From: a virus
Taxonomy: Duplodnaviria > Heunggongvirae > Uroviricota > Caudoviricetes
IMG/VR virus record: IMGVR_UViG_2609459795_000010
Span: 1-10,679 of that record
DNA length: 10,679 bases
Direction: 5' to 3' (one strand)
Each line of letters opens with the position of its first letter. Position 1 is the first letter of the stretch. The notes below the pieces were generated by a model. It worked only from the letters and a program-made list of their open reading frames with translations, ran no database searches and had not been told where the DNA came from. The position numbers and the translations under genes are program-made. Below, piece by piece: positions 2,094-9,261 of this stretch.

Positions 2094-3059
2094 TTACCCC
2101 CTGAACCCCGGCGGAATTTCGGTATCCGGCTCAGAAATATGATTCACACAACGCTGTACAGACGAACGCCCCAGGCGGATAACCAGTTCATCCCATTTTT
2201 CGCGAAGCTTTGACGGACTCATGATATTTTTTACCCAGAATGGATCCCGCTGCACCCGACCAAACATTTCACAAATTTGTCTGTGAGTTCTGCCATCCAG
2301 CATCCGCATTGTGCGCACGTCGTTGGCCCATGCGGTCCAGTTGGGTTCTTTCGGTCGCGAAATCTCGCCATCATCGCTGGCGGCCTGCTCGTAAAGACTC
2401 ACGATTCGCCCCCAGATCCACTGCGCACACGCCAAATCTTCCTGGTTGCCCCACTGGCGTTTTTTTGCACTGAACACAACCGCGTCAGGGTGTCGGGTTA
2501 AAAAATCCTGTTCAACCGTCTGCGGGTCCGGTTGCGAAGCTTCCGGACGAGAAGTGTTTTTATTCTCTGTAGTAATCTCTGTTGTATTCTCTGTAAGATC
2601 ATCAGGCCATTTTGACCCGATGACATTGAGTCGTTTTGAACCAATGGAACGTGCCATTTTGGCCTCTTCCATCGTGTCATTCTGATCTGATGGAGCAGCG
2701 CATTTTGACCTGATGGATTCGCTCACTTTGCCACCATCTAAAAGCTCGCTCTCGTAATTAATCGTGTAAAAATTAGTCATATCACGCTTTGATTTATTGA
2801 GCTTTTCGCAACGCAAAAGCCCCAGCGTTTTCAGACTTGCAAATGCGCGTTTTAACGTTGACTCTGACCAGAACGGGAACTGCTCCAGCCATTGTTCTGT
2901 TGTGTTATAAATCCAGCGAACACCATCACATTCCATGCCGGAACTGGTATCTCTCAACCAGTAATGCAACTGCTGCAACACGATGGCTTCGTTCAGACCA
3001 ATTTTCATCGCCAGCTGCGTGTTTATAACCAGCGGACGTTCAGCAAAAAGGAGCTTCAT
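2094..3059 (-). CDS. Phage replication initiator, O-like (YdaU-like), about 321 aa; ORF track extends to a TTG at 3083
   Basis: ATG at 3059..3057 lies 21 bp after the upstream stop and follows a G-rich SD. N-terminal winged-helix-like region, low-complexity linker (TENTTEITTENKNTS), conserved C-terminal region. Position between the regulator and the helicase loader. Confidence 0.8.
   Translation of the reverse strand: MKLLFAERPLVINTQLAMKIGLNEAIVLQQLHYWLRDTSSGMECDGVRWIYNTTEQWLEQFPFWSESTLKRAFASLKTLGLLRCEKLNKSKRDMTNFYTINYESELLDGGKVSESIRSKCAAPSDQNDTMEEAKMARSIGSKRLNVIGSKWPDDLTENTTEITTENKNTSRPEASQPDPQTVEQDFLTRHPDAVVFSAKKRQWGNQEDLACAQWIWGRIVSLYEQAASDDGEISRPKEPNWTAWANDVRTMRMLDGRTHRQICEMFGRVQRDPFWVKNIMSPSKLREKWDELVIRLGRSSVQRCVNHISEPDTEIPPGFRG
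2561..2716. repeat. Iteron-like direct repeats inside the initiator gene: three tandem 12-bp units (2561-2596) plus CATTTTGACCYGATGR copies at 2608-2623, 2678-2693 and 2701-2716, with a partial copy at 2655-2664; putative prophage ori
   Basis: Repeats read directly from the sequence. By analogy with lambda ori lying inside gene O in the inter-domain linker. Confidence 0.45.
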
Positions 3060-3079: not shown

Positions 3080-3505
3080 TCAATGCGCCACCACGGCATT
3101 TCCCGCCGGACCACCACGATTCATCTGATCGAACAACACGATCGCTGCCGCAACAAACTCATCGATATCTTTCACCAGGCGCTCCCGTCGCTCGACAAGC
3201 TCCCGGTGATATTCCGAACTGTGGCTGCGCATTCGGGCCACCAGCGGAGGCGGCATTGCTTTTTCGATCGCCGGTAACAACGCCTGAATTTTTTTAACCG
3301 CATCAGGGGTGTCTTTTTCTACCCAGCGGAAAATTTTCTGGGTATTACGAGACAGGGCTTCCGGATGGCTGTCGTCGTACAATTCAGGAAACGTCATACC
3401 CAACTCAAAATAAGACTGGGTTATTTCAGCTGCCGGAACTTTTTCACCGTCCGAATGAGCCCAGGCATTCATCGCCATGCGGATGTGTTCATGCTTGATT
3501 TTCAT
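3080..3505 (-). CDS. ydaT: YdaT-family regulator (CII functional analogue), 141 aa
   Basis: ATG at 3505..3503 overlaps the upstream stop as ATGA (translational coupling); GGAG lies 8 nt upstream. Size and position after the Cro-like gene match Rac YdaT as I recall it. Confidence 0.78.
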   Translation of the reverse strand: MKIKHEHIRMAMNAWAHSDGEKVPAAEITQSYFELGMTFPELYDDSHPEALSRNTQKIFRWVEKDTPDAVKKIQALLPAIEKAMPPPLVARMRSHSSEYHRELVERRERLVKDIDEFVAAAIVLFDQMNRGGPAGNAVVAH

Positions 3506-3804
3506 GAATCAACTCCATCAGATAAGCATGCACTACAATCACCTTCAGCATGAACAACATGTGTTTGCCCCAAACGAATGCCGCTCGCATACTCAGGCCA
3601 AATAAGCTCCCAATCATGGGGTCGTAGCTCCGCCCTACTTACTTGGCCTTCCGTCGCAGATTCGATCATAAGGGCGCGGGTTGGAGATATAGCTGTTCGT
3701 CCAGACGCCATTTGCGATAAGTAAGATGGCGATACACCAAGTCTGGCCGCGAATTTCTTAGCATCACCAACCCTTAATGATTTAATAAACTCTTTTAATG
3801 TCAT
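3502..3804 (-). CDS. ydaS: Cro-like HTH regulator, YdaS family, 100 aa
   Basis: HTH segment AARLGVSPSYLSQMASGRTAISPTRALMIE. AGGAAGG Shine-Dalgarno before ATG at 3804..3802. Divergent from the repressor gene. Confidence 0.82.
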   Translation of the reverse strand: MTLKEFIKSLRVGDAKKFAARLGVSPSYLSQMASGRTAISPTRALMIESATEGQVSRAELRPHDWELIWPEYASGIRLGQTHVVHAEGDCSACLSDGVDS

Positions 3805-4274
3805 ACCTTCCTCGGTTTAGTGTTTTTTTTGCGAGTTTAGTGTTTAATAAACCATTAAGTCAAGTATTTGCTTGTTTAGTGATTACTAAAGATAATTACC
3901 ACATGCAAAAAAAAGAAATTCGCCGTTTACGTCTCAAGGAGTGGTTTAAAGATAAAACTCTGCCACCCAAAGAGAAGAGCTACCTATCTCAATTAATGAG
4001 TGGGAGAGCCTCGTTTGGAGAAAAGGCTGCCAGAAGAATAGAGCAAACATACGGGATGCCGGAAGGGTATCTGGATGCGGAATACGCAGAACAACCGGGG
4101 GTTTCTCCACCACATACAGGGTTAACGTCTAATCAACTGGAATTATTGCAGATTTTTTCAGCCTTCCCTGAGGATGAGCAACGCCAGATAATCAGCGAGT
4201 TAAAGCAGAAAAAAGAATCAATGGAAGATCTCATAGCGAGATGGATTGCGGCGCAAAAATGCCGCCGCGCCTGA
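3798..4274 (+). CDS. racR: Prophage repressor, RacR-like HTH_XRE protein (158 aa from ATG 3798; ATG at 3903 giving 123 aa is the more plausible start)
   Basis: HTH motif SYLSQLMSGRASFGEKAARRIEQTYG. Divergent from the Cro-like gene across an operator-repeat region. The 158-aa length matches my recollection of K-12 RacR. The first 35 codons overlap the operator region and the ydaS start. Confidence 0.82.
   Translation: MSYLPRFSVFFASLVFNKPLSQVFACLVITKDNYHMQKKEIRRLRLKEWFKDKTLPPKEKSYLSQLMSGRASFGEKAARRIEQTYGMPEGYLDAEYAEQPGVSPPHTGLTSNQLELLQIFSAFPEDEQRQIISELKQKKESMEDLIARWIAAQKCRRA
3805..3902. promoter_or_regulatory. Divergent operator/promoter region (OR analogue): three GTTTAGTG repeats plus candidate divergent promoters
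   Basis: GTTTAGTG at 3815-3822, 3835-3842 and 3874-3881. Minus-strand TTGACT (3863..3858) with TAAACT (3839..3834) at 18-nt spacing, reading toward ydaS. Plus-strand GATAAT (3891-3896) 6 nt before the ATG at 3903, suggesting a leaderless repressor mRNA. Confidence 0.5.
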
Positions 4275-4294
4275 GTTATAAAACCGGAGGAAAC

Positions 4295-4486
4295 ATGAAT
4301 AGAGCCCTTTCACCAATGGTTTCTGAATTTGAAACCATTGAACAAGAAAACAGTTACAACGAATGGCTGCGTGCGAAAGTAGCAACGAGCCTTGCAGATC
4401 CGCGCCCAGCAATTCCCCATGACGAAGTTGAGCGCAGAATGGCAGAACGCTTTGCTAAGATGCGCAAGGAACGGAGCAAGCAGTAA
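4295..4486 (+). CDS. Putative type II antitoxin (ParD/RelB-like), 63 aa
   Basis: GGAGG Shine-Dalgarno 4 nt upstream of the ATG. Stop TAA is 1 nt before the ParE-like start. Small acidic protein with a basic C-terminus. Assignment rests mainly on its position upstream of the toxin. Confidence 0.6.
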   Translation: MNRALSPMVSEFETIEQENSYNEWLRAKVATSLADPRPAIPHDEVERRMAERFAKMRKERSKQ

Positions 4487-4487
4487 A

Positions 4488-4766
4488 ATGTTACCCGTGT
4501 TATGGCTTGAAAGCGCAGATACCGACCTAGATGATATAACTAGTTATATTGCTCGTTTCGACATAGATGCGGCTGAACGCTTATGGCAGCGATTAAGGGG
4601 TTGTGTGCTGCCGTTATCCGAACATCCGTATTTATACCCACCAAGCGACAGAGTACCTGGCTTGCGTGAGATTGTAGCCCACCCTAACTATATAATTCTA
4701 TACCGCGTAACAACATCAAGCGTTGAAGTAGTAAACGTGATCCACGCAAGACGCCAGTTTCCCTAA
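4488..4766 (+). CDS. ParE/RelE-superfamily toxin, 92 aa
   Basis: C-terminal signature PGLREIVAHPNYIILYRVTTSSVEVVNVIHARRQFP fits the ParE consensus (GLRE...Y.I.YRV....V.I.RV.H.R). Start is tightly coupled to the upstream small ORF. Confidence 0.78.
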   Translation: MLPVLWLESADTDLDDITSYIARFDIDAAERLWQRLRGCVLPLSEHPYLYPPSDRVPGLREIVAHPNYIILYRVTTSSVEVVNVIHARRQFP

Positions 4767-5877: not shown

Positions 5878-6432
5878 TTTCACCCTCCTGAGGGTTGGTG
5901 ATTAAGGAGTTCTCCACGGGTGAGGTGGAGTGCGTGCGCCGGACACGGGTGAGCATCCGGCACTGACAGTTTACTGAAAGGATATTTCCCTGAAAAGTCA
6001 GACCATAACGCGAAAGCGCACGGCGAGGTAGCTGGTTCATAGATAGCCTGTCGTTAAATTTTCGTCGACCGTGCGCTTCCGGTTGTGGCACTCCGCGAAA
6101 TGGCGCGGCGGTAAGTATGGCGGGGGTATTCCTTCCCCGTTGAGGACACCGGGTTGTCAGGTTGACCATACGCTTAAGTGACAACCCCGCTGCAACGCCC
6201 TCTGTTATCAATTTTCTGGTGACGTTTGGCGGTATCAGTTTTACTCCGTGACTGGTCTGCCGCCCTTTTTAAAGTGAGTTTTGTGATGCGGTGAATGCGG
6301 CTGAGCGCACGCGGAACAGTTAAAACCAAAAACAGTGTTATGGGTGGGTTCTCTGTATCCGGCGTTAATTGTTAACTGGTTAACGTCACCTGGAGGCACC
6401 AGGCACCGCATCAACAAAGTTCATTTGTAAAA
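5878..6432. other. 555-bp GC-rich, hairpin-dense non-coding tract between divergent genes; candidate structured RNA, long leader or gene remnant
   Basis: No convincing ORF on either strand. Hairpins read directly include GGTTGTCA...TGACAACC (8-bp stem), CCGCG-AAATGG-CGCGG and CCGGA...TCCGG. Composition contrasts with the AT-rich flanks. Confidence 0.3.
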
Positions 6433-7761: not shown

Positions 7762-9261
7762 GTGGCACTGAACAAATACATTACTGAATACCTGACTACA
7801 AAGGGCGTGTTTGAAGATGAAGGAACAAATCAGAGCGCAACTGATACTCTCTCGTCGCCAGTACCAGAAACTGATGCAGTGGAAACGGCAATTCCGGACA
7901 ACGAAAAAACCGAATGCAAAGTGGAAGTCGAACCATCTGTAGAGCGTGAGGGGCCGTTCTACTTCCTCTTCACCGACAAGGATGGCGAAAAATACGGTCG
8001 CGCAAACAAACTTTCTGGTCTGGATAAGGCGCTGGCTGCCGGGGCTACTGAAATCACGAAAGAAGAATATTTCGCCCGCAAAAACAGTACATACTCAGGT
8101 TCACAACAAAATACTGGTGCATCTGACACGACCGCACAGCCAGAACCGGTAAAAGTTACCGCTGACGAAGTAAACAAAATTATGCAGGCAGCCAATATCA
8201 GCCAGCCTGACGCCGATAAGTTGCTTGCTGCATCACGTGGTGAATTTATTGAAGGGATTAGCGACCCGAATGATCCGAAATGGGTTAAGGGGATCCAGAC
8301 CCGCGATACTGTGAACCAGAACCAGCAAGAAACGGAACAGAACGACCAGAAAGCGGAACAAAACAGCCCAAATACGCAACAAAACGAGCCAGAAACGAAA
8401 CAACCTGAACCAGTAGTGCAACAGGAACCGGAAAAAATCTGCACCGCCTGCGGTCAGAGCGGTGGTGGCAACTGCCCTGATTGTGGTGCGGTGATGGGCG
8501 ACGCAACATACCAGGAAACATTCGATGACAAGAACCAGGTTGAAGTTCAGGAAGACGATTCGGAGAAAATGGAAGGCGCTGAACACCCACACAAGGAGAA
8601 TGCTGGCAGCGCTCAGGATCACGCCAGCGATAGTGAAACTGGCGAGACGGCAGATCCCTTAATTACGGTGAACGGTCATCGCGTTATCACATCCACCAGC
8701 AGGACGTGTGACCATCTAATGATCGACCTTGAAACCATGGGAAAAAATCCTGATGCCCCGATTATCTCAATAGGTGCAATATTTTTCGATCCGCAAACCG
8801 GAGATATGGGACCGGAATTTAGTAAGACTATCGATCTGGAAACTGCTGGCGGAGTCATTGATCGTGACACCATTAAATGGTGGCTTAAGCAATCACGCGA
8901 GGCGCAATCTGCCATTATGACCGATGAAATCCCGTTAGATGATGCACTGTTACAATTGCGGGAATTTATCGACGAAAACTCCGGTGAATTTTTTGTTCAG
9001 GTCTGGGGAAATGGAGCCAACTTCGACAACACGATTTTGCGCCGTTCATACGAGCGGCAGGGGATCCCCTACCCGTGGCGTTACTACAACGATCGCGATG
9101 TACGCACAATCGTTGAGCTGGGGAAAGCCATAGACTTCGATGCCAGAACTGCTATCCCATTCGAAGGTGAGCGCCATAATGCACTTGATGACGCTCGTTA
9201 CCAGGCAAAATACGTTTCAGCTATCTGGCAAAAACTGATCCCGAGTCAGGCTGATTTTTAA
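7762..9261 (+). CDS. Multidomain protein, 499 aa: acidic low-complexity N-terminal region, CxxC-x8-CxxC zinc ribbon, C-terminal DEDDh 3'-5' exonuclease domain (Rv2179c/RNase T-like)
   Basis: Exo motifs seen in the translation: IDLETMG (Exo I), [12 protein letters not shown] (Exo II), [10 protein letters not shown] (Exo III). Zinc ribbon [16 protein letters not shown]. Start is GTG with no clear SD. An internal start at the ATG near 8719 would give a domain-only exonuclease. Confidence 0.75.

Follow-up and report, generated by a model that had tools for sequence, protein, structure and literature searches.

Does the repeat-rich middle of a phage initiator gene also serve as the origin from which the prophage replicates? 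This question was raised by a window of 10,679 nucleotides ("the window" here means the whole stretch of DNA analyzed), which corresponds to the region for immunity and replication in a lambdoid prophage of E. coli that resembles Rac and Qin. Origins located inside initiator genes are textbook knowledge for λ and are established for pSK41. This layout, known from λ and from staphylococcal plasmids, is found here in an initiator family that is both common and unstudied. At least 80% of the gene is present in 1,799 of 5,426 complete E. coli genomes, where the usual annotation is "hypothetical protein." In a 2025 study, mEp460_4F5 and 34 "O-only" lambdoid phages were called unstudied and their replication was described as not understood (PMC12315714). 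Our literature search, which did not extend to the older subscription literature, returned no prior description of the origin of this initiator family or of the 12-mer motif described below. We consider it quite likely that positions 2547–2741, in the linker-encoding part of the initiator gene, constitute the cis-acting replication origin of this prophage. A first-pass annotation of the sequence had proposed an intragenic origin, and the computational results support that reading in several ways: the phasing of the repeats is independent of the reading frame, synonymous divergence is suppressed across them, they are conserved together with the N-domain of the initiator, other iterons appear when this domain is swapped, and an array of low stability lies downstream of them, as in oriλ and pSK41. 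The features of the locus are summarized in Table 1.

Table 1. Features of the replication region and of the proposed origin within the initiator gene.
Feature	Position	Strand	Remarks
DUF977 gene	910–1326	minus	
DnaC-type helicase loader gene	1341–2087	minus	directly downstream of the initiator gene
Initiator gene, 321 aa	2094–3059	minus	ATG at 3059, stop 2094–2096; from the ORF list
C-terminal domain, aa 176–321	2097–2534	minus	exchangeable module
DnaT-like C-terminal tail, VNHISEPDTEIPPGFRG	2097–2147	minus	NCBIfam DnaT positions 158–179
Conserved tail of the 12-mer array	2547–2560	minus	gene sense AAAACACTTCTCGT
Three tandem 12-bp units	2561–2572, 2573–2584, 2585–2596	minus	gene sense TTACAGAGAATA CAACAGAGATTA CTACAGAGAATA
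Iteron 5, GTCATCGGGTCAAAATGGCCTGATGAT	2598–2624	minus	
Iteron 4, TCCATTGGTTCAAAACGACTCAATGTC	2622–2648	minus	
Iteron 3, TGGAAGAGGCCAAAATGGCACGTTCCA	2645–2671	minus	third codon phase
Iteron 2, TCCATCAGATCAGAATGACACGATGGA	2668–2694	minus	different codon phase
Iteron 1, TCCATCAGGTCAAAATGCGCTGCTCCA	2691–2717	minus	
Iteron 0 (weak), TTAGATGGTGGCAAAGTGAGCGAATCC	2715–2741	minus	in register, 24 bp before iteron 1
N-terminal winged-helix domain, aa 1–105	2745–3059	minus	presumed iteron-binding domain
YdaT-like gene	3080–3505	minus	
cro/YdaS-like gene	3502–3804	minus	
pR-like promoter candidate	3834–3863	minus	consensus scan; gene order, overlapping stops/starts

The genes surrounding the initiator are those of a replication operon. 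The loader gene matched the NCBIfam models NF009043 (E = 1.4e-149) and DnaC NF005931 (E = 2.7e-94), its product is 50% identical to E. coli DnaC, and the order of the initiator and the DnaC-like gene mirrors that of the host dnaT-dnaC pair. The pR-like candidate would transcribe the cro-like gene, the ydaT-like gene, the initiator gene with its repeat element, and the loader gene; a scan for promoters and terminators returned none within the initiator gene. The DicF antisense sRNA (6214–6265, plus strand; Rfam RF00039, 74.2 bits) marks a Qin/dicB-type prophage region. Two small ORFs at 4241–4766 (plus strand), adjoining a repressor-like gene, match in position the RelB antitoxin and the RelE/ParE toxin annotated in the near-identical locus L001. 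A further repeat, an imperfect 21-bp tandem repeat at 8313–8403 (plus strand; 4.3 copies, 74% matches), lies in the 499-aa ORF at 7762–9261 and encodes a Q/E/N/P-rich low-complexity stretch. At the other end, the gene at 305–763 is probably antiterminator-Q-like, judging from synteny with L001, and the minus-strand ORF at 1–276, which runs to the left edge of the window, is one that we take to be IS1 InsA. In that case, the gene at 305–763 is bordered or truncated by a copy of IS1, and the prophage is probably defective on its left, IS1 side; because of this disruption, the copy of the origin present here may never fire.

The first-pass annotation had called the gene product an O-like initiator, and this name holds for the architecture and for the PHROG label but not for the DNA-binding domain. 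The protein matched phrog_391, "replication initiation O-like," with an E value of 1.8e-95 (residues 18–321 on profile positions 13–298 of 298). In the Pfam scan it had no family: Phage_rep_O (PF04492) was unmatched even at E ≤ 10, a scan in which λ O itself scored 5.7e-36, and RepA_N (PF06970) gave no match either. Searches of the N-domain against Pfam, NCBIfam, and PDB sequences yielded nothing usable, the only matches being the DnaT tail and a spurious one to Slx4. The closest fold of the N-domain is the RepA_N/DnaD-NTD winged helix, of which the RepA_N prototype is the pSK41 Rep structure 4PTA; profile comparison with pSK41 Rep (hhalign) gave a probability of 0.1, which is not significant. 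In E. coli TD225-C4, a 99.8% identical gene is a RefSeq CDS of the same length, annotated "hypothetical protein." The last 17 residues of the initiator, VNHISEPDTEIPPGFRG, align with the C-terminus of host DnaT and with Rac YdaU and the initiators of loci L003 and L010. Nearly the same tail is encoded at L096 1979–2089 (minus strand; host primosomal DnaT) and at L002 5870–5977 (plus strand; K-12 Rac YdaU), and it also ends initiators with other C-domains (L003 and L010). DnaT is an adaptor in the PriA-PriB-DnaT pathway, which leads to the loading of DnaB-DnaC (PMC13220808), and on sequence likeness the tail is a possible docking peptide for DnaC or DnaB-DnaC.

The repeats occupy codons 106–167 of 321, i.e., the gap between the N-domain (aa 1–105) and the C-domain (aa 176–321), which agrees with their earlier placement in the inter-domain linker part of the gene. 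The 16-mer CATTTTGACCYGATGR occurs at 2608 and 2701 without mismatches, at 2678 with two, and at 2632 with three; these four matches in the window compare with 0.45 expected. A further copy at 2655 has the core GGCCAAAATG with one mismatch, and a sixth, weak copy lies at about 2725, where relatives have a better conserved iteron 0 (GAGGTCAAAGTGA). The copies at 2608, 2678, 2701, and 2655 had already been noted, and these positions stand; the one at 2632 had been missed, and with the copies at 2632 and about 2725 added, the earlier count of three to four becomes five to six. The start-to-start spacing is 24, 23, 23, 23, and 24 bp. Five same-strand matches to the core fall within 110 bp, and the maximum in 1000 Markov-1 simulated sequences was three. 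The 10-mer core alone is not enriched across the window (13 matches vs. 14.3 expected), and for this core only the clustering and the phasing are significant. There is no second array of the iteron core motif elsewhere in the window, and a scan for DnaA boxes gave eight matches vs. 9.9 expected, with none in the origin.

Within the gene, the iterons lie at nt 319–462 and are followed by three tandem 12-bp units at nt 464–499, the whole element spanning about 2547–2741. The coordinates earlier given for the three units (2561–2596) matched exactly. The motif ACAGAGAWTAC, with at most one mismatch, occurs three times in the window, always in this array (0.27 expected; none of 200 shuffles reached three). 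The array has a GC content of 0.31, compared with 0.49 for the gene, and its bottom strand is T-rich. It is the least stable 36–50 bp in the gene (z of about 2.2) and, at the 97–98th percentile of instability in the window, is not the extreme there; unwinding is predicted from this low stability, and we regard the array as a candidate unwinding or loading element. In the family loci, the density of CAGAGA is 7.8 per kb within the 300 nt that follow the N-domain and 0.20 per kb elsewhere, a 38-fold enrichment. The array and its tail were recovered by blastn at 88–90% identity in Bacillus phage BtCS33, Staphylococcus phage SpaA1, and Klebsiella phage Kp4882-1, and the N-domains and iterons of Kp4882-1 and BtCS33 differ from those of the window (GGGGAAAGTCCATTCCG, about 23 bp, and GGCTCCCACAYTRAAAC, respectively). 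In these two phages (L097 and L098, 1250–1400, minus strand), the same ACAGAGAWTACT array of three units is followed by AAAAACACTTGTC, and a similar tail, AAARACNCTTGTC, comes after the array in L007, L097, L098, and L099. Viral contigs scanned for the exact pattern yielded at least 120 stretches of the array. Among these matches, the array started in the ACA GAG frame of the longest ORF in 78 of 80 loci, and in these 80 loci it lay mid-ORF wherever the contig allowed; the N-domains upstream of it, among the matches listed, were of three recognised types (46, 14, and 11 loci), with three unassigned.

We also analyzed the conservation of the element in loci with homologous N-domains. In all listed phage homologues, which came from phages of Escherichia, Klebsiella, Erwinia, Providencia, Pantoea, Staphylococcus, and Bacillus, the order was N-domain, three to six iterons (22–24 bp), CAGAGAnTAC units, and a variable C-domain. 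Pseudomonas phage AF had CAGAGA units and no detectable repeated iteron. Scanning a single genome for each species added 80 more loci from several phyla. Across 90 homologous loci, the autocorrelation at lag 23 was 0.383, compared with 0.235 in the N-domain control, and at least three copies of an 11-mer were found in 73 of the 90, with spacings of 23 (139 times), 24 (38 times), 22 (17 times), and 46 bp (25 times); a clear array was missing in the other 17. The iteron cores vary by lineage (GGTCAAAATGACC, GGGCAAATTGCCC, GGACAATTTGTCC, and GTGCAAAATGCAC) and in every case form a palindrome with an A/T centre, in line with what a dimer would bind. In L092 (a Thermomicrobiales MAG), at about 1800–2100, an apparent second tandem N-domain motif (IGFDEALVLQQVRYWL) replaces the iteron array.

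The C-domain is an exchangeable module, connected at a mosaic joint at 2560/2561, and E. coli matches break at query position 467/468. Many E. coli prophages have no more than 2094–2560 (the C-domain) in common with the window and carry a different N-domain, and in others the shared part is limited to 2561–2996. L003 keeps the N-domain, iterons, and 12-mers with a replaced C-domain, and the C-domain is also replaced in L007. The converse swap is seen in E. coli locus L005, in which the same C-domain is joined to an HTH_36-type N-domain and at least five different 15-bp repeats (TCAAnnnTTGAnGGG) stand at the same place. Relatives in which the initiator is encoded on its own also retain the element. 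A lack of conserved repeats in related prophages that share the DNA-binding domain had been named as an observation that would speak against an origin; the array is conserved in relatives with this N-domain, and in view of this conservation and of the swap in L005, that test fails to refute the origin.

Could the repeats be a by-product of a low-complexity linker, in which SK/GSK and TExTTE peptide repeats were kept without any role at the DNA level? A single frame does accommodate the three best iterons, which translate as I(R/G)SK(C/R/W); the 12-mers, also in frame, give TENT/TEIT/TENK, and of 211 occurrences of CAGAGA in the family, 198 have the ACA GAG frame. However, a period of 23 bp is not a multiple of three and cannot follow codons; the six copies are in phases 0, 0, 2, 1, 0, and 0, so that the 23-bp period places other copies in two other frames, and their translations differ. 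We compared the gene codon by codon with relatives of about 75% amino-acid identity in the N-domain. Identity at synonymous codons was 0.34–0.53 in the N-domain (amino-acid identity, about 0.75), 0.79–0.90 in the iteron stretch (about 0.63), and 1.00 in the 12-mers, and for L003 the difference in synonymous identity between the N-domain and the iteron stretch gave a Fisher p of 9e-6. Compared with the N-domain, this part of the gene thus combines much stronger conservation of synonymous sites with weaker conservation of the peptide, the signature of a nucleic-acid element superimposed on a linker that tolerates change. Furthermore, Thr is always ACA/ACT and Glu always GAG, and in seven loci (L014, L058, L069, L070, L073, L082, and L089) the CAGAGAnTAC units are 10, 11, 13, or 14 bp apart and translate as DRDY, PETT, or TQRI, which indicates that the DNA and not the TExTTE peptide was kept. 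The by-product explanation is already largely refuted, and we give it hardly any credence. We regard as equally improbable the proposal that the palindromic repeats act as mRNA hairpins in translational pausing or in controlling the stability of the initiator message. The gene-sense RNA of 2555–2745 folds with z = −2.23, and one of 200 shuffles folded as well; this signal is modest, and what folds into hairpins is nothing other than the dyad symmetry of the iterons. According to published work, the initiator that comes closest in structure to the N-domain recognizes sites of this kind in double-stranded DNA (PMC5703833). An RNA element was rejected as a candidate, there being no Rfam match in the gene and the fold z of −2.2 being explained by the palindromic iterons.

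Two other explanations accept a role for the DNA itself. The iterons may be a region where the initiator binds for control (autoregulation, handcuffing/incompatibility, or cis-inhibition) while initiation occurs elsewhere; iterons of plasmids also act in copy control. Nevertheless, the window holds no second array of the core motif, a tandem element of low stability adjoins the iterons with the polarity mapped in λ and pSK41, and relatives that encode the initiator alone keep the element, so we assign this explanation a low probability. The 12-mers, in turn (2547–2596 only), might be kept mainly as a recombination "linker" between heterologous replication modules, an idea that is compatible with the iterons being the origin. 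The E. coli mosaic breakpoint falls exactly at 2560/2561, and the same array follows at least three unrelated types of N-domain and iteron and precedes several types of C-domain. On the other hand, an identity of 88–90% over about 50 bp between E. coli and the Bacillus/Staphylococcus phages would be hard to maintain in this way, both the low stability and the location directly behind the last iteron are in keeping with an origin element, and the corresponding place in pSK41 is occupied by a tandem AT-rich array of unrelated sequence. We consider such a linker function unlikely.

Under the origin reading, which we prefer, initiation could proceed as follows, by analogy with known origins. Dimers of the winged-helix N-domain would bind the five or six semi-palindromic iterons, which are centred on an A-tract (GGTCA-AAA-TGrCC). 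As the iterons are phased at 23–24 bp, the bound proteins would line up and bend the DNA into a complex resembling the O-some. The resulting strain may open the adjacent 36-bp array, with its three 12-mers, low stability, and strand-asymmetric composition. The C-domain and the DnaT-like tail would then recruit host DnaB together with the DnaC-type loader, whose gene lies downstream, a recruitment step that the likeness of the tail to DnaT would support, and transcription of the rightward operon through the gene may assist, as at oriλ.

A more tentative proposal concerns the 12-mers themselves. It is possible, though rather doubtful, that the tandem (A/C)CAGAGAWTAC array is a sequence-specific core element of the origin, apparently undescribed, and not a mere AT-rich spacer. 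Such an element would be common to at least three types of N-domain and iteron and to several types of C-domain, and its hosts would include Proteobacteria, Bacillota, Campylobacterota, Bacteroidota, and others. Since the array is common to so many types of initiator, its partner would be something common to all of them; candidates are a conserved single-strand-binding mode of the winged-helix superfamily and a universal host replisome component, e.g., primase or the DnaB-family helicase. A speculative point is that CTA can be read on one strand of the unit and CTG on the other. Full-text searching of the literature, with either the 12-mer sequence or its peptide, gave nothing but noise. The analysis of the origin flags a 12-mer array conserved across phyla, and the definition of the origin provides a concrete cis element with which replication of these prophages, including the "O-only" lambdoid phages, can be tested.

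Comparison with λ bears out the earlier claim of the same arrangement as the λ origin inside gene O, in both position and polarity. oriλ, which lies centrally in gene O, is made up of iterons and an AT-rich tract (PMC7466680); its annotated iterons lie at nt 349–433 of 900, spaced 20, 24, and 23 bp, and the AT-rich tract follows. In both systems the origin, mapped or proposed, is mid-gene in the inter-domain linker region, dyad-symmetric iterons (four to six at 20–24 bp; five to six at 23/24 bp in the window) are followed in the direction of the gene by an AT-rich tract that would melt easily, the gene belongs to a rightward early operon, and the N-domain and iterons behave as one specificity module. 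In contrast, the N-domain of the window is not Phage_rep_O (PF04492), its iteron sequence is unrelated (λ TCCCTCAAAACGAGGGA vs. GGTCAAAATGrCC), its partner is a DnaC paralogue and not λ P, and its putative melting region is a set of sequence-conserved tandem 12-mers whereas that of λ is a plain AT tract.

Rac shares with the window the operon (ydaS-like, ydaT-like, initiator, DnaC-like ydaV, and DUF977) and the C-terminal tail of the initiator. YdaU differs in being a DUF1376 protein whose N-domain and linker have no similarity to the initiator: BLASTP against K-12 YdaU aligned only the last 22 residues. The mapped Rac oriJ was therefore rejected as an uninformative comparator, which cannot validate the origin of the window. 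Rac ydaU has intragenic repeats of its own, AAGCAGATGTTCAA (L002 5472–5563; spacing 33, 33, and 12 bp), which are unrelated to those of the window and are candidate oriJ iterons.

The closest likeness in construction is to the RepA_N plasmids. In pSK41 (NC_005024), rep contains four Rep boxes at exactly 23 bp, with the core TGTCAAAAGGACA, followed by three 15-bp AT-rich tandem repeats. pSK41 Rep is a three-part protein with an exchangeable C-terminal domain; its N-terminal domain binds the Rep boxes in the central part of rep, and the protein can do without its origin-encoded linker (PMC5703833). In RepA_N replicons the iterons are semi-palindromic and converge on a poly-A tract (PMC7145576). 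The two initiators have similar lengths (321 vs. 319 aa) and share a winged-helix N-domain, an origin-encoded linker, and an exchangeable C-domain, the linker in the family studied here being low in amino-acid and high in nucleotide conservation; the pSK41 origin and the proposed one share an identical 23-bp period, semi-palindromes around an A-tract, a near-identical core (GTCAAAAGGAC vs. GGTCAAAATGrC), and three tandem AT-rich repeats after the iterons. In the natural chimera pPR9, the N-terminal domain and the origin have been swapped for an HTH_36 type (PMC5703833), which parallels L005 relative to the window. The differences are the lack of detectable sequence similarity, the phage or prophage context in Gram-negative hosts, a C-domain with a DnaT-like tail next to a DnaC-like gene in place of a DnaG-binding domain, and antisense RNA control, which is not evident in the window. 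The fold, the 23-bp iteron period, and the near-identical core nevertheless link the replication modules of Gram-negative lambdoid phages to the RepA_N paradigm, and the anatomy shared with both systems suggests an element that would work like oriλ and be built like a RepA_N origin.
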